From an uncultured archaeon (GTDB taxonomy: Archaea > Asgardarchaeota > Lokiarchaeia > Sigyniarchaeales > SOKP01), in contig CAZWEM010000007.1 in NCBI GenBank assembly GCA_964632315.1, forward strand, positions 16,571 to 80,570: DNA of 64,000 nt. Direction: 5' to 3'. Positions 34,910-55,721 of this stretch are shown piece after piece (positions within the stretch are counted from its first letter, which is position 1; every line of letters begins with the position of its first letter). A model generated the notes under the pieces. It saw only the letters and a list, made by a program, of their open reading frames with translations, was not told the origin of the DNA and did no database searches. A program made the translations under genes and the position numbers.

Positions 34910-35431
34910 TTAAGTATAACGACCTCTTAATAATCCAAGTACGATTAAATTTATTGTACAAATCCCATTTATTATGATTTGGATTATTATATTAGAGACT
35001 TGTTTTGGTGAAACGAACCAAAAAGCGAGAGGAGTAAATATTTCTGCCGTTATCCAACAAAATAGAGTTATCAAATATGCATAAAAAAAATTTCTTCTAT
35101 ACCTCGAAATTTTGAAAGAATGATCGGTTTTTGTAAGAAGAACCAATGCCGCTCTTCCAATGTCGGAAAAAGTGTACTTTGAATCTCTTTGAGTTAATAA
35201 TTCTTTCATGCTTTTAAGATGATAGGAGAGGGTTGGACTATCAATTGAACCCAACTCCATCTGAATTTGGCTAAATGTTAAATCTCGTTCTCCTAAAACT
35301 TTTATAATATTTCTCCGAATGGGATGGGTTAACAACTTGAAAATCTCATCTTCTTTGGAACTTTCATCCGTGTTCGGTTTATTTTTTAACATTTGTTTCA
35401 ATATTGTAAGTAATATTTTTTTTGCTTTCAA
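34910..35431 (-). CDS. ArsR-like wHTH regulator with two C-terminal TM helices
   Basis: IFKLLTHPIRRNIIKVL...SPTLSYHLKSM...YTFSDIG followed by two hydrophobic segments. Confidence 0.85.
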   Translation of the reverse strand: MKAKKILLTILKQMLKNKPNTDESSKEDEIFKLLTHPIRRNIIKVLGERDLTFSQIQMELGSIDSPTLSYHLKSMKELLTQRDSKYTFSDIGRAALVLLTKTDHSFKISRYRRNFFYAYLITLFCWITAEIFTPLAFWFVSPKQVSNIIIQIIINGICTINLIVLGLLRGRYT

Positions 35432-45678: not shown

Positions 45679-46551
45679 ATGAAAATATTATTAATTGAAG
45701 ATAATGCAGCTGATATTAAACTTATAGAAGAGTTTTTAAAAAAATCCTCCACTTTTCAATACGAACTTCATTCATTTACGCGTCTTTCAGAAGGATTAGA
45801 TTATGTTAATAATAATGAAGTGGATGTTATCTTACTAGATCTGACCCTACCAGATAGTGATAAAGAATCCTCTCTTGATACGATCCTAGAATACACATCT
45901 AAATATCCTGTTATTATTTTAACTGGATTTGATGATAAAGAAATTGCCTTAAATTCTCTTAAAAAAGGAATTCAAGACTATTTAGTAAAGGGAGATTTAA
46001 CTGATACCATCTTAAATCGTTCGATTTTATATGGAATCGAACGCCACAAAATCAAGCCTGAAGGTGCAATCAAAAAAGAAATCGAATTACCTTTAGATAA
46101 AAAGGATAAATTAATTCTAAACATTTTACAAGATAATTACAAAATATCTTATAAAGAAATAAGTAGTAAAGTGCATCTAGCAGCGAGCACAATCCATAAT
46201 CGCGTACAAAATATGATTACTACGGGGATTATTAAAGAAATCGATACAATTGTGGATCCATATAAAGTCGGTTTTAATACCATTACCATTGTGAGTTTAT
46301 CTGTAGATCCCTTAAAAATAGATGAGATTGCCCAAAAACTAAAAATATATGATAACATTCAACTCATTGCCTCTAGTGGAGGAGAATATAACTTAATAAT
46401 AAAAATTATAGTGGAAAATGAGAAAACCCTCTGGAAATTTATTAATGAAAAAATTAAAACAATTTCGGGAATATCAACCCAAATAAATGTTTCAAGCTTA
46501 ATTGAAATTTTTAAAAACACATCAAGAGTAAAATTTAAAGTAGAAAAATAA
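45679..46551 (+). CDS. Response regulator: REC domain fused to an Lrp/AsnC regulator (HTH + RAM)
   Basis: REC: LLIEDN, LLDLTLPD, ILTG, YLVKG. Lrp: LDKKDKLILNILQDNYKISYKEISSKVHLAASTIHNRV...VDPYKVG...SSGGEYNL. Confidence 0.9.
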   Translation: MKILLIEDNAADIKLIEEFLKKSSTFQYELHSFTRLSEGLDYVNNNEVDVILLDLTLPDSDKESSLDTILEYTSKYPVIILTGFDDKEIALNSLKKGIQDYLVKGDLTDTILNRSILYGIERHKIKPEGAIKKEIELPLDKKDKLILNILQDNYKISYKEISSKVHLAASTIHNRVQNMITTGIIKEIDTIVDPYKVGFNTITIVSLSVDPLKIDEIAQKLKIYDNIQLIASSGGEYNLIIKIIVENEKTLWKFINEKIKTISGISTQINVSSLIEIFKNTSRVKFKVEK

Positions 46552-49081: not shown

Positions 49082-50029
49082 TTATTTCAAAATTGCTAAT
49101 TGCTCTAAAGAAATTTGCTTTGAAAAAATAATATCTTCTTTTAAGATCTCTTTAATTGTAATTAAAATAGTAGTATCAATTATACAATAGGGAAAAGTAA
49201 AAACTATTTCTTCTTCAAATAGCCATTGTTCGACATCAATATTCATTACTTCTTTTTCAAACAAATCGTAAATATGAGAGATTCGAATATTTAGGGCTTC
49301 AAATATCTTCTCTGTTATATTTTTAATTATGATTTCAATTTCTTCACATAAGTTGTTAACTTTTATAGTCTTTACTTCAAAGATATTCTTATCTTCGCTT
49401 AATTTAGAAATTGATTCAAAGATATTAATATTCGAAAAATTTTCCTGAGATATTTGTTCTAGATGAGAAACATTCATTCCCATCGATTCTAAAAAAGTTA
49501 TGGCTTTTTGTAATTTAGTACATTTTGCGTCAGGGAAACCTGTAATAGAGTTTAAAAAAATTGAACATACAAAATTGATAAGTTCTAATACTCGTTTTTT
49601 GAGGATTTCTCCTTTAAGAATTATTTGTTGCTTTTTCACATTTTGTACTATATCATATTTATTTATTTCAGATTCCACAATCGTATAAAGTGAATATTTA
49701 TATCGTTTTATAATGTAATTCTCTAATAAACTTAACAAGTTCTCTCCAATTATATGTAATTCTACAGGTAATATTAGACAAATCGCACAACATTCAAACT
49801 GATTTGAGCTTTCTGAAAACAATTCTAATTTTTTAGCGAAGTATACTTTTTTTCCCAATTCTAAAACTAAGGTGCTGTTTTTTTCTTGTTCATCAAAATA
49901 AAGTGCAAGAGTTCCTAACATTCGTGTTCTTTCGTGATCTAATTTAATAGAATCATAAGGGTATATTACAAAAGGCACGTAACCAAATAATCGGTCAAAA
50001 TATAATAATAATACTTCGAACCTACTCAT
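49082..50029 (-). CDS. Hypothetical protein; N-terminus resembles a longin/uDENN-type domain
   Basis: Probable start ATG 50029: MSRFEVLLLYFDRLFGYVPFVIYP resembles the hhhhhFD..xG.....hP opening of longin/uDENN domains. Fold call is tentative. Confidence 0.5.
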   Translation of the reverse strand: MSRFEVLLLYFDRLFGYVPFVIYPYDSIKLDHERTRMLGTLALYFDEQEKNSTLVLELGKKVYFAKKLELFSESSNQFECCAICLILPVELHIIGENLLSLLENYIIKRYKYSLYTIVESEINKYDIVQNVKKQQIILKGEILKKRVLELINFVCSIFLNSITGFPDAKCTKLQKAITFLESMGMNVSHLEQISQENFSNINIFESISKLSEDKNIFEVKTIKVNNLCEEIEIIIKNITEKIFEALNIRISHIYDLFEKEVMNIDVEQWLFEEEIVFTFPYCIIDTTILITIKEILKEDIIFSKQISLEQLAILK

Positions 50030-50078
50030 TTCCGTTATTTGAGTCTTTTCAAATATAAGAATCACCCTATAAATTATT

Positions 50079-51386
50079 TTAATGACTCGCACACGAGACA
50101 CATGGATCAAAAGATCTTATAATTTGTTGAACATCACATTTAACTCCATTAATATCGCCAGTTTTTTGATATAATCTTCGAGCATAATTCGTTATCATTG
50201 TATTTATGAGTGGAATGTTTATTTCTGTTGCTATGAGCAATTTTACTTCCTTTACTATCTTATTCTCATCAATCTTGTAGTGATGGATCAATGTGCCACG
50301 AGGAGCCTCTAAAATTCCAACACCATCTTTTCTTTCAATTTTTTTTAAATTTGAGAGATTCCTTTTTCCCTTTAGTGCAGGATTATCTAAAATTGCTAAA
50401 GCTTGGTTTGCTTCTACAAAAATTTCAATTAATCTGAGAAAGTTCATAAACAAGGTCGATCTTTTCCAGGATTTATCGAAATTTGTGAAATATTTATCAA
50501 CATCCTCAACGTTATAACTTTCAATCAGATTATAACGTGCAAGAGGACCAACTAAAATGCTTGAATCTTTTTCTAAATTAAAATTGATCCCTCGTAGATC
50601 AGGATCTTTATCAAAATATCTTTCATAATTATTAAATTGAAAGTCTACGGGTTTAGATTGATCGGTGAGTAATCTCAATATACCATTGTATCTTCCGTAA
50701 TTGCCATGAAAATGTTGACTGAGAAATGTTGTATTTGGTAAGGTGAATTGTTCTGGAGGCTCAAAATTTGAAAATAGGTTTATAAATTTATCTAACACAT
50801 AATCTATACTTACAATAACTTTTTGGAAGTAGCGTTTTACGGTTGTAAAATCTTTTTTTATTGGAGTATAAATTACTCCTCCTGGAATTGTATTAATTAA
50901 ATGTACCGAACGACCACCAAATATCTTGTCAATTTCGTTCCCAAATTTGACTAGCTCATACATGTATGAGGTTAATTGAGGATCAAAATGGGTTAATTCA
51001 TATGGATTAGGAACATTTTTAAAATGTCCAAAAATATGTAAAAGATCTGGTAATGCTTGAAAGAAATAATGCATTGAATGAGATTTGATTAGTTCGCCTG
51101 TCAATAATAATTTTCTTAGAAGTATCATTTGTTCATCTGGTTCAACATTAAATATGTGTTCAATTGCCTTGCAACTTACGATACTTTGAGAAGCATGGCA
51201 TAGCCCACATATCCTACTTACAATTCGGGGAAGTTCTATTAATCTCTTTCCAATAAGAATTTGTTCAAATCCTCTTAAAGTATTAATTTCGAAATCTACC
51301 GTGGAAATATTATCATCTTGAAGAATTATTTTTACATTTCCATGGCCTTCTATTCTAGTACATAGATCTACGATCTTTAACATCAT
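50079..51386 (-). CDS. mvhA: [NiFe]-hydrogenase large subunit, group 3 (MvhA-like), atypical
   Basis: TRIEGHG, RGFE, RICGLCHASQ, SHSMH, EAPRGTLIHHY, DPCVSCASH followed immediately by stop. Confidence 0.88.
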   Translation of the reverse strand: MMLKIVDLCTRIEGHGNVKIILQDDNISTVDFEINTLRGFEQILIGKRLIELPRIVSRICGLCHASQSIVSCKAIEHIFNVEPDEQMILLRKLLLTGELIKSHSMHYFFQALPDLLHIFGHFKNVPNPYELTHFDPQLTSYMYELVKFGNEIDKIFGGRSVHLINTIPGGVIYTPIKKDFTTVKRYFQKVIVSIDYVLDKFINLFSNFEPPEQFTLPNTTFLSQHFHGNYGRYNGILRLLTDQSKPVDFQFNNYERYFDKDPDLRGINFNLEKDSSILVGPLARYNLIESYNVEDVDKYFTNFDKSWKRSTLFMNFLRLIEIFVEANQALAILDNPALKGKRNLSNLKKIERKDGVGILEAPRGTLIHHYKIDENKIVKEVKLLIATEINIPLINTMITNYARRLYQKTGDINGVKCDVQQIIRSFDPCVSCASH

Positions 51387-51387
51387 T

Positions 51388-52146
51388 TCACCTCTCTAAA
51401 ACTGGTCTTGAAAATCTGTAGAAAATTCCATCATATTTACGCAAAGTTGCAGATAGATTTATGAGGCTCAAAAAATTAATAACATTTGAAGTATAATCCT
51501 TAGAAATGGGCCCCATACATCCCTCACAAGGCATTCCTTGATTAATACATTTGTGCTCGCATCCTTCTCGTGTAATGGGACCTAAACATAAAATTCCCCT
51601 TTTTAAAAAGCAGATCCCATTTGTTTCAAAATCCGAAATCTCTTCAGGATTAGGTTCAAATCGAGAAATTTCAATTTCTGTGTTTAGAGTTATGTCCGCT
51701 TTTAATGGGCAATTTGCACATAAATTTTTGTTTGATAATTCGATTTCTTTATTTTCGATTATATGTAGTAAAATGTTACCTAACATTTTAGAAGGAGGAG
51801 GACAACCGGGAATAATTCCATCAATTTCTATGTATTTAGAAATAGGTTCTGCATTTTTAACTTTAGAAAGACTCAAGATACCACCAAAAGTAGCACAAGA
51901 TCCTAAAGAAAATACTTTTTTAGCATAATATCTTATAGTTTTAACCAGGTCAATTTGCTCTTTTTCAGAGATGCATCCTTCTATGAGAGCAATATCACAA
52001 TCCTTTATTTCTATTTCATCATTAATAAACGGAAAGATAACGTCTCGGGTTCTCTCGAGAAACTGGGGAAAGATATCTAATGCCATTAACGTTGATATAC
52101 ATCCACTACAAGATGTTAATGAATAAATGAGAATTTTAGGCTTCAA
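51388..52146 (-). CDS. mvhG: [NiFe]-hydrogenase small subunit (MvhG-like)
   Basis: SCSGC, GSCATFGG, PGCPP, CANC, CFL..G.LCLGPITREGC...C...CEGC.GP. TTG start at 52146 after GAGGTGG, overlapping the upstream stop. Confidence 0.88.
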   Translation of the reverse strand: MKPKILIYSLTSCSGCISTLMALDIFPQFLERTRDVIFPFINDEIEIKDCDIALIEGCISEKEQIDLVKTIRYYAKKVFSLGSCATFGGILSLSKVKNAEPISKYIEIDGIIPGCPPPSKMLGNILLHIIENKEIELSNKNLCANCPLKADITLNTEIEISRFEPNPEEISDFETNGICFLKRGILCLGPITREGCEHKCINQGMPCEGCMGPISKDYTSNVINFLSLINLSATLRKYDGIFYRFSRPVLER

Positions 52147-54697
52147 TTTCTCCCACCTCTTCCAATTCTTTGTAAAATTTTTGAATGATTTCAGAAAACT
52201 TACTTCCTTCCACAGCATTTACATGTTTCAATATGACTCGGTGGGCGAATTTTGGACCAAGAATACTCTTTAATAAGTGAACTTTCTTTCTTACGTTCTC
52301 AATACCATCAATGTATCTGCAAGAGTTTTTTCGGCATCCAATGATCAAAATTCCATCAAACCCTAATTCAAAAGATTTTATAATAAAGCTTGAATCGACC
52401 CTTCCGGTACATGGTACTTGAATTATGAAGATATTAGGATAATATGTTATCTTCTTCAATCCAGCATCATCAGCTGCAGCATAACCACAAGATCGACAAC
52501 AAAATGCGATAATTTTAGGCGAATTTTTAAATTTGGAAAATATTTCTATACTTTTTAATATTTTTTCAGAGCTGTCTATGTTCATGCTCAAAGCATTAGT
52601 AGGACAGACGCTTACACAAGTACCACATCCCTTACACTTGAATTTATCAATGTTTAATTTATCAACTTCAAAAGTTATAGCATTATAAGGACATACTTTT
52701 AAGCATAGTCCACAGAGACCACATCTTTCATAATTTATTTCAATTCCTCCAAATTCAGCTAATAAATAATCATTAGAAAGTAAAGAAATTACTTTTAACG
52801 CAACTTGGTTTGCTGATATAATAACCTCCTTATAACTTAATGGCCCAAAAATCGAGCCTGCCCCGTAGACTCCTGAAGCAAGTGTTTCTTCGCTCATAAA
52901 TCCAAAATCATTTAATGTAAAATCCATTTGTTTACGAAGAACTTTTAAATCTTTATTGGGAATTAAATTAGGATTCAGAATTATTAAATCAGAAGGATAT
53001 TCTTTATCATCAGCAACGACAACATTTTGGTTATATGTGTTTTTAATTTCTAACTTTTCAGCGTAATGAATCCTATCATCAAAAATACTAAATCTATATG
53101 AGGGAGTTTTCACCTTATTTTGAATTTGATAAAACACATTTATGTTTATTTCTGGATTCTTTTGGCGAATTTCTTCCATGTATTTTAATACTAAGACGTT
53201 AGCTAAATCTAATTGTGAGTTGCTCTCAGTTGCATTCTGAATTATGGAGATATCATTCGGTACTGCTTTATCTGAAAGACGAATGATTTTTCCTTCTGTT
53301 ATTCCATCTGAAGATAATATTCTTTCAAATTCAGCTGAAGTTATTATATCATTCATTGGATTATGGGAGAAATTATCAAATTTATCAGGAAGGTCAGTAC
53401 CAATAGCAACCACCTTAGTACCTGCTTTAATTCGTATTTCTTCTGGTTTTTGAGATAGATCAATTGCTTTGTTTGGACATGCCCGTTCGCATATTCCGCA
53501 ATTAAGACAGTTCTTTATGTCTTCTTGATCAATTATGGGAGCATATGGATAACAATGAATAAATGGTAAGTATATTATTTTTCGCTCCTCCAAATTAAAC
53601 TCATATTGATTTGGTTTTTGAACACTACATAAATCGATACATTGCTTACAACCAGTACATTTGGTTTCATCTACAAACCTTGGATTTTTTCTTAAATCAA
53701 TGGTAAAATTACCAACCTCTCCAGAGATATTCATAACTTCTGTATTAGTAAAAATTTTGATATTAGATTCTTTTACAAGTTCAGAAATGAATTCTGAAAT
53801 AAAACATATCGAACAATCTCCCATTTCATAAATTTTATGCCATCTTGCTACTTTTCCTCCAAGTGTTGCCGATTTTTCAATTAAATACACTTTTATTCCC
53901 GCCCTTGCTAGATTAAGAGCAACAGTCATCCCAGCAATACCTCCTCCAAGAACTGCGCAACTCCGTTCAACTTCTACCTTTTTAACCCTAATTGCTTTTT
54001 GAAGTATTGCTCTCTCGACTGCAGCTTCTATTAATAATTTAGCTTTTTCTAGGGTTAAAGCAGGATCTATTATTTCGTTTAAATTATTATGAACCCACGC
54101 ACATTGTTCTCTAATATTCGCAAATTCAATATAAGTATGATCAACTGTATTTTCAAAAATATGCTCAAAGAGATGTTGATGAGTCTTGGGAGAACAAGCA
54201 GCAATAACAATCTTATTTAAGTAGTTATCTTTAACCCAATTTTTAATTTGATCAAAATTTTTCTGTTGACATAAATTTTGAAAACGTTTAACTGAAACCA
54301 CGTTTCTTAAACGGGTAATGTAATTCTCAAGTGCGGAAATATTGATAACACTAGAAATTTCCTCATTACAATTACAAATTATTACGCCTACTCTACTGAT
54401 CTCACTTCCTTTGGAGTGAAAATAATCATCTATGTCCTCACCTGAGAGAATTCGTTTATTAAGATTCATAATAGTCATAATCCTTTTGCCATCTTCGGTG
54501 AGAAAATAGGATTTATTATCCTTTCCAATAAGAGAACCAAGTTTCTTAAGGTGAAAATTAAGTTGACCAGTCGTATCTAACCCAAGGCGTTCCATTAACT
54601 CTGTGTAAGGAATATAACCTTCTTTTTCCAAAAGGAGTAAAATTTTTCTTCGAAAAGGGTGGGATAAAATTGAATAAACATCCATTTCTTTTAACAT
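52136..54697 (-). CDS. Fusion protein: winged-helix DNA-binding domain + HdrA-like flavo-FeS protein + MvhD
   Basis: N-term LSHPFRRKILLLL...TGQLNFHLKKL...YFLTEDG. HdrA motifs VGVIICNC, AACSP, NIREQCAWVH, GGGIAG, DCSIC and two ferredoxin modules. MvhD motifs AFCCRSCGYAAAD, CTGRVD, GC....CRY. Confidence 0.9.
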   Translation of the reverse strand: MLKEMDVYSILSHPFRRKILLLLEKEGYIPYTELMERLGLDTTGQLNFHLKKLGSLIGKDNKSYFLTEDGKRIMTIMNLNKRILSGEDIDDYFHSKGSEISRVGVIICNCNEEISSVINISALENYITRLRNVVSVKRFQNLCQQKNFDQIKNWVKDNYLNKIVIAACSPKTHQHLFEHIFENTVDHTYIEFANIREQCAWVHNNLNEIIDPALTLEKAKLLIEAAVERAILQKAIRVKKVEVERSCAVLGGGIAGMTVALNLARAGIKVYLIEKSATLGGKVARWHKIYEMGDCSICFISEFISELVKESNIKIFTNTEVMNISGEVGNFTIDLRKNPRFVDETKCTGCKQCIDLCSVQKPNQYEFNLEERKIIYLPFIHCYPYAPIIDQEDIKNCLNCGICERACPNKAIDLSQKPEEIRIKAGTKVVAIGTDLPDKFDNFSHNPMNDIITSAEFERILSSDGITEGKIIRLSDKAVPNDISIIQNATESNSQLDLANVLVLKYMEEIRQKNPEININVFYQIQNKVKTPSYRFSIFDDRIHYAEKLEIKNTYNQNVVVADDKEYPSDLIILNPNLIPNKDLKVLRKQMDFTLNDFGFMSEETLASGVYGAGSIFGPLSYKEVIISANQVALKVISLLSNDYLLAEFGGIEINYERCGLCGLCLKVCPYNAITFEVDKLNIDKFKCKGCGTCVSVCPTNALSMNIDSSEKILKSIEIFSKFKNSPKIIAFCCRSCGYAAADDAGLKKITYYPNIFIIQVPCTGRVDSSFIIKSFELGFDGILIIGCRKNSCRYIDGIENVRKKVHLLKSILGPKFAHRVILKHVNAVEGSKFSEIIQKFYKELEEVGEIEA

Positions 54698-54741
54698 CCC
54701 TCTGACTTTTTATGATAAATAAATTGATAAATTTTTTAATA

Positions 54742-55019
54742 TGATAATTTTTTTTATCAACATGACAAATGATGTGATCAAGATATATAAATCTATGTTG
54801 TAAATCGATCATATAATGTTGCATTCCAAAAATAGCGATCCTCAATTTCAATAATATTGAGTATTTTTCTATAAAAAATCCGGTAATTAATACCAAAAAA
54901 CTATAAAAGTAGGGGTTGTTACAGCAAAATAGGTTCAAATCTTAATTGACAACACTTTTAGTTAAGCATTTTTTTTGATAAGATTTGTTGTCAAATTTAG
55001 CATTAATTTTGTTGTCAAA
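54742..55019. promoter_or_regulatory. Divergent promoter with TGATAA-N6-TTRTCA palindromes and TGTTGTCAA repeats
   Basis: TGATAA-tttttt-TTATCA 54742-59 and TGATAA-gatttg-TTGTCA 54976-93. TTGACAACA 54946-54. TTTGTTGTCAAA at 54984 and 55008. Confidence 0.5.
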
Positions 55020-55100
55020 CTCTTTAAATTTGGAATAAATGGTTTTTCAATTAGAAAACTGTATTCAACTAATTTCCAACGAAAAAAAGGTGGTAAAAAA

Positions 55101-55721
55101 ATGGAAGTATTAGAATTGAACGGTCCCAAGGATGTAAAAATTATTGTATACATGGCAAAGTCAGAAAAGTCAGATATTCAGAAGGGATTCGATAGTAGAG
55201 TCCTTTCTTTTATCAAGGAAAAAGGAGTAAAGTTTGTAACCATTGATTTTCAAATTGACATTAAATCATTCAAAAATACAGACTTAGGAAAAGTATTAGA
55301 AAAGTCAGGAATTCCATTTTATCAAGTTGATATTCCTGAATATGCTATGGGATATATTTATGAGGAAATAGTGGAGAAGGAAGAATTAATGAATGAGTTA
55401 TGCGATGAATATGAATCAATGGAGAATAAGGATAGTTATAAAGGAGAAAGCTTGAAAAATTGGATTGACCTGCTTCATGAAGAAATCCAGCAGAAAGAAA
55501 ATTATATTAGTCTAAAATTAAGACCGCAGTGGATTGTTAAAAAAATGTTGGATCTATCTAAAACTCATAGAGCAAATCGAGTAGTATTCCTTCATTATGT
55601 CCAAACGGACATTTGTGAAGATATTTGCCCACAAGTCACACAACAATTAAGAGAAGTGGGCGTTAAGGTAATTAATTATAATGTAAAAAAACATTTAAGA
55701 GAAATATTAGCAAAATCTTAA
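55101..55721 (+). CDS. Hypothetical protein, paralog of the N-terminal domain of the next gene
   Basis: ATG 55101 follows AGGTGG. IPFYQVDIPEYA...W...L.EE..QKE......R..W..K.L aligns with the N-terminus of the downstream protein. Confidence 0.75.
   Translation: MEVLELNGPKDVKIIVYMAKSEKSDIQKGFDSRVLSFIKEKGVKFVTIDFQIDIKSFKNTDLGKVLEKSGIPFYQVDIPEYAMGYIYEEIVEKEELMNELCDEYESMENKDSYKGESLKNWIDLLHEEIQQKENYISLKLRPQWIVKKMLDLSKTHRANRVVFLHYVQTDICEDICPQVTQQLREVGVKVINYNVKKHLREILAKS

Follow-up and report, generated by a model that had tools for sequence, protein, structure and literature searches.

Can an electron-carrying flavoprotein of hydrogen metabolism also act directly on DNA? The question is raised by a gene of an uncultured archaeon (Asgardarchaeota; Lokiarchaeia; Sigyniarchaeales; SOKP01) that lies in a stretch of 64,000 nucleotides (nt) of assembly GCA_964632315.1 (contig CAZWEM010000007.1, positions 16,571 to 80,570 of the forward strand), referred to as the window and used for all unmarked coordinates. 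The gene, P0001, joins an ArsR-type winged helix-turn-helix to the hydrogenase-associated proteins HdrA and MvhD, and its HdrA part has lost the four cysteines of one cluster motif. Judged from sequence, its product appears to be the flavin and Fe-S subunit of an Asgard-specific [NiFe] hydrogenase complex (the fusion, MvhG and MvhA) that carries its own ArsR-type head. It could quite plausibly serve as an H2- or redox-responsive autoregulator in the manner of the flavoenzyme PutA, shifted in this clade towards a one-component sensor of H2 or redox state.

Models of Asgard syntrophy and eukaryogenesis give hydrogen exchange a central place, and hydrogen sensing in archaea is, to our knowledge, essentially unknown. 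No account of a DNA-binding HdrA, or of DUF7347, the family to which the winged helix belongs, turned up in a literature search. The fusion family offers a testable candidate for H2 sensing that comprises both a defined protein and a defined DNA element.

A winged helix in one frame with HdrA and MvhD

The fusion gene and its parts lie on the reverse strand.
52136-54697 (-): P0001, winged helix-HdrA-MvhD fusion gene, one unbroken open reading frame of 853 amino acids from the first ATG
54443-54685 (-): ArsR-type winged helix-turn-helix (DUF7347, PF24038), residues 5-85, with recognition helix TGQLNFHLKK
54398-54442 (-): linker, residues 86-100, with a predicted local distance difference test score (pLDDT) <50, yet conserved in sequence (0.76)
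53993-54397 (-): HdrA N-terminal Fe-S domain, residues 101-235, with C108, C110, C143, C168 and C199
53804-53947 (-): from the loop for flavin adenine dinucleotide (FAD), GGGIAG (251-256), to the DCSIC pair (C295 and C298, equivalent to C197/C200 of HdrA)
53456-53677 (-): inserted ferredoxin domain, with 8 invariant Cys, the equivalents of clusters HA5/HA6
53180-53242 (-): former site of cluster HA4, residues 486-506 (IQNATESNSQLDLANVLVLKY); four cluster Cys gone, K505 (K409 equivalent) kept
52538-52762 (-): C-terminal ferredoxin domain, with 8 Cys
52139-52525 (-): MvhD/FlpD domain, a [2Fe-2S] carrier, residues 725-853

A reading made earlier from the sequence alone had described an uninterrupted frame joining HdrA to a winged helix of the same type as two regulators elsewhere in the window, and both points are confirmed: the window proteins at 34910 and 4249 each match DUF7347 and align with the P0001 winged helix in BLASTP (E 3e-9 and 1e-6). 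The database cluster identical to P0001 is 849 amino acids long, so the real start is probably M5, at position 54685. At the position aligned with the initiator Met, 3 of about 50 related loci (L039, L044 and L053) have the codon ACG and several others TTG or GTG, which may reflect non-canonical initiation or a mis-set start.

Profile searches recover the main parts of the protein. Pfam places DUF7347 at residues 6-75 (44.3 bits against a cut-off of 27.6), the FAD Rossmann fold at 246-287, pairs of Fer4 domains at 346-410 and 652-706, and FlpD/MvhD (PF02662) at 729-849 (119 bits against 22.3), while the NCBIfam HdrA2 model NF040770 spans residues 102-852 with 574 bits, below its cut-off of 1100. 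The AlphaFold2 model (pLDDT 86, with linker residues 86-98 of low confidence) has the HdrA fold, with Foldseek template modelling (TM) scores of 0.70-0.84 to 8rvu, 5odc and 7bkb. For the winged helix the nearest match in the PDB is 1y0u, a putative ArsR repressor (E 0.006), and its recognition helix is nearly invariant in the fusion family. From its family, its conservation and its co-occurrence with a promoter motif described below, we infer that this domain binds DNA. A complex prediction for two copies of residues 1-100 gave a median of 0.40 against a mark of 0.42.

Loss of one cluster beside a preserved flavin site

P0001 shares with the HdrA of the MvhAGD-HdrABC complexes (5ODC, 8RVU, 7BKB) and with HdrA2 (NF040770) the fold, the domain order, the FAD loop, the E356/K409 and C197/C200 pairs, the N-terminal cluster, both ferredoxin pairs, a fused MvhD, and MvhG and MvhA as partners. 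It differs from them in its winged helix, the absence of four Cys, a shorter subdomain, the lack of an HdrBC neighbour and the sub-cut-off score to NF040770. In agreement with the sequence-only reading, Pfam and an alignment of 67 sequences show every other cofactor site retained: the ligand Cys of the N-terminal cluster, of DCSIC, of both ferredoxins (8+8) and of MvhD (C734, C737, C763, C788 and C793) are invariant or nearly so, as are, without exception, G251, G253 and G256 of the FAD loop.

The loss itself is real. In HMMER alignments to the structure-derived sequences of 8rvu and 5odc, the segment IQNATESNSQLD...LANVLVLKY faces the HdrA cluster motif (IQCVGSRD...CSxxCC), and none of C386, C399, C403 and C404 (5odc numbering) has a Cys counterpart; P0001 contains no Cys at all between C407 and C659. 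These four residues we take, by elimination, to be the ligands of HA4, since the five remaining clusters are already supplied by the other Cys sets; the 2017 structure paper (Wagner et al.) is reported to make the same assignment. The earlier statement that the motif binds the FAD-proximal [4Fe-4S] cluster is likewise sound by elimination, and published work places FAD and a single Fe-S cluster in the thioredoxin-reductase domain of HdrA (PMC12054007). HA4 passes the high-potential electron from FAD to HdrC/HdrB (PMC12350162, PMC13580544), HA3 is the 'shuttle' cluster of the C-terminal ferredoxin domain (PMC13580544), and HA5/HA6 belong to the inserted ferredoxin.

Two residues within the affected domain have been kept. 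E356 and K409 are the key bifurcation residues of HdrA, with K409 contacting N5 of FAD (PMC12054007), and their equivalents in P0001, E458 and K505, are invariant in 120/120 relatives and in all deep clades. K505 sits only five residues downstream of the lost CSxxCC, in a relaxed segment. With both residues invariant, K505 even inside this otherwise relaxed segment, the loss is targeted: one cofactor was removed and the flavin site preserved. Bifurcation research thereby gains a natural 'HA4 knockout' that keeps E356/K409.

The proposal that bifurcation towards HdrBC is disabled therefore stands in part. The HA4 Cys are gone, and HdrBC, in the form of a CCG-domain gene, adjoins none of the approximately 57 loci with genes checked, including those that keep the four Cys; a disabled flavin chemistry does not follow, as E356/K409 are retained. 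The companion claim of degenerate neighbouring motifs and a shortened domain holds for P0001 itself, where the YxDIR position reads FYQIQ, the GPKDI position reads GPLSY and the thioredoxin-reductase stretch is about 26 residues shorter than in 5odc_A. The short subdomain and the degenerate YxDIR are, however, traits of the whole fused family, Cys-keeping clades included, and so are not tied to the loss.

Conservation of the fusion and the order of events

The sequence-only reading had named random decay and misassembly of the winged helix-HdrA junction as the ways in which it might fail. Protein searches return more than 120 clusters at 63-90% identity, nearly all of about 849 amino acids with DUF7347 and FlpD, and labelled as Promethearchaeota or as Loki-, Thor-, Hod-, Hermod- or Odinarchaeota. 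Of 400 genomes of the phylum that were scanned, about 100, from eight Asgard families, carry the fusion at full length; two single-contig genomes of family f3 lack it. CSxxCC occurs in none of 120/120 aligned relatives (63-90% identity), and the four HA4 Cys are absent throughout the clade of at least 54% identity to P0001. Mean pairwise identity by domain is highest in the winged helix (0.82) and lowest in the former HA4 subdomain (0.51), with the rest at 0.68-0.82.

A misassembled junction or a pseudogenised HdrA is thus scarcely credible. The same fused frame recurs across these clusters and about 100 independent assemblies, the cofactor ligands are invariant, identity outside the former HA4 part stays at the values just given, and the model retains an HdrA fold; the loss, shared by every aligned relative, does not have the random character that decay would produce.

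More distant fused proteins, at 35-51% identity, carry all four Cys (P0125, P0126, P0127 and P0130; families f19, f31 and f28). One HA4 Cys is left in f21, and f4, f5, f6 and f1 have none, or only vestigial non-homologous Cys. In a tree from a quick maximum-likelihood search, the fused proteins form one clade (Shimodaira-Hasegawa-like approximate likelihood ratio test, 100) with unfused HdrA-MvhD proteins as sister group, and the Cys-less sequences are nested in a ladder of P0130, f28, f21, f4, f5 and f1/f6. As the deeper fused clades keep four Cys, the fusion appears to have come first, and the HA4 Cys to have been lost once, stepwise, within the fused lineage.

At finer scale, P0001 shares 68-70% identity with species of genus g12 but 59-67% with most species of g1, the genus to which it belongs, a pattern suggestive of two sub-lineages or of transfer within the family. 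The relatives nearest to it (79-90%) come from metagenomic contigs.

Hydrogenase partners with sensor-like features

Downstream of the fusion on the same strand lie three further genes.
51388-52218 (-): P0002, MvhG-type [NiFe] small subunit, which keeps the Cys motifs conserved in 5odc MvhG
50079-51386 (-): P0003, MvhA-type [NiFe] large subunit, with L1 motif RICGLCHASQ and the C-terminal end DPCVSCASH
49082-50110 (-): P0004, fourth same-strand gene, 342 amino acids, an Asgard-only hypothetical family

The P0002 frame overlaps the end of the fusion gene (52136-52218 with the first ATG taken as its start; 11 nt as the genes are called in a 90% relative), and the order fusion-MvhG-MvhA is constant in every locus long enough to show it. 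P0004 has no Pfam or NCBIfam match, and the ESM Atlas gave only Asgard hypothetical clusters; a P0004-type gene comes after MvhA again in relatives L053 and L060.

By sequence P0003 belongs to group 3 (3c, Mvh/Vhu-type), with VhuA and MvhA as best matches, and it has two unusual features: Gln replaces the His of L1, and the C-terminal extension is absent. They can be set against solved or well-known large subunits.
5odc_F, solved MvhA: about 25 more C-terminal residues than P0003
HoxC, regulatory, Cupriavidus necator: L1 RVCGICSVSQ, ending ...CTVH
HoxG, membrane-bound, C. necator: L1 RICGVCTGCH, 15-residue tail

Gln in place of the otherwise universal L1 His is characteristic of regulatory hydrogenases (PMC5665086), which also lack the large-subunit C-terminal tail (PMC8229454). 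P0003 thus resembles the group 2b regulatory hydrogenase of C. necator (HoxBC-HoxJ-HoxA) in its L1 Gln, in having no cleavable tail after the L2 His, and in coexisting with a separate canonical hydrogenase in the same genome. Unlike that system it is archaeal and of group 3c, it has no histidine kinase or response regulator, and its proposed output would be a DNA-binding domain on the HdrA-MvhD subunit. No kinase occurs among the genes of the fusion operon.

Across the fused clades, the changes in HdrA and MvhA are distributed as follows.
f19, f31 and the P0127 lineage: four HA4 Cys, L1 His, MvhA tail of 7-12 residues
f28: four HA4 Cys, L1 His, MvhA end non-canonical
f21: one HA4 Cys, L1 His, MvhA tail of 7-8 residues
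f4: no HA4 Cys, L1 Gln, MvhA tail of 6 residues
f6: no HA4 Cys, L1 Gln, MvhA tail of 11 residues
f5: no HA4 Cys, L1 masked or off the locus, no MvhA tail
f1: no HA4 Cys, L1 Gln, no MvhA tail

From this clade-by-clade pattern, the order of events would be loss of HA4, then replacement of the L1 His by Gln, then loss of the tail. The clades provide a natural series for biochemical comparison, from a full cofactor set to an HA4-less one and from His with a tail to Gln without.

The same complex could instead be purely catalytic and non-bifurcating, a linear wire between NiFe site and ferredoxin through MvhD, FAD, HA3 and HA5/6, used for ferredoxin-dependent H2 evolution or for H2 oxidation in a fermenting or syntrophic Asgard, with the winged helix as a structural or minor autoregulatory addition. 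The retention of the NiFe motifs, the MvhG Cys motifs, the E/K pair and the other cofactor ligands speaks for such an enzyme, as do the enzyme-like fixed gene order and the wide variation of Fe-S cluster number among HdrA classes (PMC12054007). It would leave unexplained the conservation of the winged helix above all other domains and the two sensor-hydrogenase hallmarks of MvhA, and the genome already has a canonical Mvh with HdrCB: its second [NiFe] large subunit reads RICGICPIPH, with the L1 His, and lies beside HdrC, HdrB and hyp genes. On balance a purely catalytic role seems unlikely, though it deserves serious weight.

That canonical Mvh-type cluster (G000:C11:36584-40832) comprises a small subunit, the L1-His large subunit, HdrC and HdrB, with hyp genes nearby; its large-subunit frame stops before any DPCxxC, as in split VhuA/VhuU selenoprotein systems. 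The same genome holds about 25 CCG-domain genes.

A conserved dyad in the divergent promoter

The fusion gene is transcribed away from a divergent neighbour, P0275, and the 415-nt region between them (54686-55100) contains two blocks conserved in phylogenetic footprinting against the 90% and 79% relatives. The first consists of a TATA-like box followed by TTGATCAC...TTTGTCATGTTGATAAAAAAAATTATCAT; the second, on the other side, contains repeated TTTGACAAC, TTATCAA and GTTGTCAAT. Each side has a dyad.
54743-54758: dyad GATAA-N6-TTATC, just downstream of the TATA-like box at 54783-54792, conserved in the 90% and 79% relatives
54977-54992: second dyad, GACAA-N6-TTATC, on the side of the divergent gene, within a cluster of TTGACAA/TTGTCAA repeats

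Motifs were counted in 44 non-redundant upstream regions of fusion loci. TGACAA/TTGTCA is present in 23 of the 44 (5.5 expected) and ATTGTCA in 17 (2.1 expected), and a GACAA/TTGTC inverted pair with a spacing of 0-25 nt, five of them N6, occurs in 10, compared with 0.28 in shuffles (maximum 3 in 500); these 10 regions come from f31, f19, f28, f21 and f1. In the 4.45-Mb genome there are 45 GAYAA-N6-TTRTC sites, two of which fall in the 415-nt fusion region, where about 0.004 would be expected. Clusters of at least three TGACAA sites number 4 genome-wide against 2.8 expected, so such clustering is not a general genomic feature. The promoter of the canonical hydrogenase has a single TTGTCA, which is not significant.

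Together these counts support the GAYAA-N6-TTRTC dyad as a conserved putative operator. A purely catalytic hydrogenase would again fail to account for a matching dyad that stays with the promoter in clades whose proteins are 36% identical.

A candidate redox switch

The sequence-only reading had pictured a redox-reporting chain attached to a DNA-binding head. That the remaining chain reports rather than catalyses finds indirect support in the sensor-like changes of MvhA and in the operator-like dyad. In such a scheme, electrons from H2 would pass from the NiFe site through the MvhG clusters and the MvhD [2Fe-2S] cluster to FAD, and on to HA3 and HA5/HA6, in a chain with no exit to HdrBC and therefore no heterodisulfide-coupled bifurcation. 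The mobile arm of solved Hdr complexes includes the HdrA N-terminal domain (PMC12350162), and it is to this domain, which would swing with the hydrogenase arm, that the winged helix is tethered by its short linker. The position of the arm, or the redox state of the flavin, could then set how well the two heads of an HdrA dimer fit the dyad, and the outcome would be a switching of the hydrogenase operon together with the divergent operon of P0275 and an MtdA-type dehydrogenase.

The closest precedent for this logic is PutA, a flavoenzyme of proline utilisation that has a DNA-binding domain at its N-terminus and an operator in the divergent promoter of its own gene, with flavin redox as the proposed switch. 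The analogy would be partial: fold and chemistry are unrelated, PutA has a ribbon-helix-helix domain and associates with the membrane, and the switch of P0001 is one that we infer. Within HdrA proteins, sHdrA of sulfur oxidisers (6TJR; Foldseek TMt 0.80) is similarly non-canonical with a reduced cofactor set and forms a mirror image: its FAD-proximal cluster is present, and the Fe-S domains at the N-terminus, in the insertion and at the C-terminus are missing.

A stronger version of the autoregulator reading makes the complex a direct, one-component sensor from H2 to DNA. Transcription of the hydrogenase operon and of MtdA, a dehydrogenase of the Wood-Ljungdahl branch, would follow H2 pressure or ferredoxin poise without a kinase or any other regulator in between, and the loss of HA4, the change from His to Gln and the loss of the tail would mark a stepwise conversion from enzyme to sensor, convergent with the bacterial regulatory hydrogenases. 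This version is possible and is put forward tentatively.

Several observations weigh against a regulatory role. E356/K409, the remaining clusters and the intact NiFe site would suit an active enzyme too, and the Gln of regulatory hydrogenases 'seems not to be involved in H2 sensing' (PMC5665086). The loss of HA4, the change to Gln and the loss of the tail are each a single event on one lineage; their co-occurrence, being for that reason beyond statistical testing, is a trend and not a statistical correlation. Clades with HA4 and the L1 His intact likewise carry the winged helix and the dyad, so that regulation, if real, is independent of the loss. The binder of the dyad could be another of the genome's many DUF7347 regulators. 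Finally, no wider regulon is evident among the GAYAA-N6-TTRTC sites of the genome, as about 10 of the 45 are intergenic, near a rough chance expectation. The genes beside the other intergenic sites (a 2-oxoacid:ferredoxin oxidoreductase, acyl-coenzyme A (CoA) synthetases, a CoA transferase, a YaaH channel and a rubredoxin-reductase-like gene) serve as leads only.

The linked dehydrogenase and further genes

The divergent side of the locus holds two related genes.
55101-55721 (+): P0275, divergent gene, 206 amino acids from M43, paralogous to the N-terminal half of P0274
55726-57432 (+): P0274, of which residues 269-565 form a full MtdA-type NADP-dependent (nicotinamide adenine dinucleotide phosphate) methylene-tetrahydromethanopterin dehydrogenase

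The MtdA part of P0274 matches 6tlk and 1lu9 at E 1e-31, and its N-terminal domain of about 265 residues, of which P0275 next door is the paralogue, is an uncharacterised one. The predicted fold of P0275 (pLDDT 83) has no match in the PDB at E 0.001 or better. The two halves of P0274 are split in many f1 genomes, those of its own genus included. A P0274-type gene is divergent to the fusion in f1, f4 and f21 and follows MvhA directly on the same strand in f19 and f31; its phyletic pattern mirrors that of the fusion, and every fusion-bearing f19 and f31 genome has it.

This linkage brings in another reading, in which the complex still bifurcates and a new high-potential partner meets the flavin directly without HA4, be it NADP+, coenzyme F420 or the linked MtdA dehydrogenase with its P0275-like domain. 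Its reduced subdomain would make the FAD site more accessible, much as has been suggested for HdrA2 with F420, and direct access of F420 to the FAD of HdrA2 has been discussed (PMC12054007). The invariance of the E356/K409 equivalents fits continued bifurcation, as do the shortening of the subdomain in the whole fused family and the co-distribution of the MtdA fusion, linked in five Asgard families (f19/f31 on the same strand; f1/f4/f21 divergent). The segment, however, contains no nucleotide-binding GxGxxG, neither P0274 nor P0275 has Fe-S or flavin motifs, and MtdA is linked in the same way in clades with HA4 intact, so this partner is no substitute for HA4; nor would this reading account for the winged helix or the dyad. 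Continued bifurcation through such a partner is accordingly improbable, and the redox-responsive autoregulator remains the preferred reading of the locus.

At L066:1-3589, in the P0127 lineage with its four Cys intact, NuoF-like, NuoG-like and Oxidored_q6+Fer4 genes precede the fused operon, possibly as a module linked to nicotinamide adenine dinucleotide. At least nine further HdrA paralogues, at 30-34% identity, lie on contigs C2, C9, C52 and C40 of the genome G000 (loci L002-L008). Several of them contain one to three in-frame TGA codons, as do neighbouring MvhD-like genes, consistent with the selenocysteine use that has been reported for Asgard HdrA/FrhD (PMC11227280). Elsewhere in the window, a gene at 45679-46551 (+) combines in one protein the receiver domain of a response regulator with a winged helix and ligand-binding domain of the AsnC/Lrp type.

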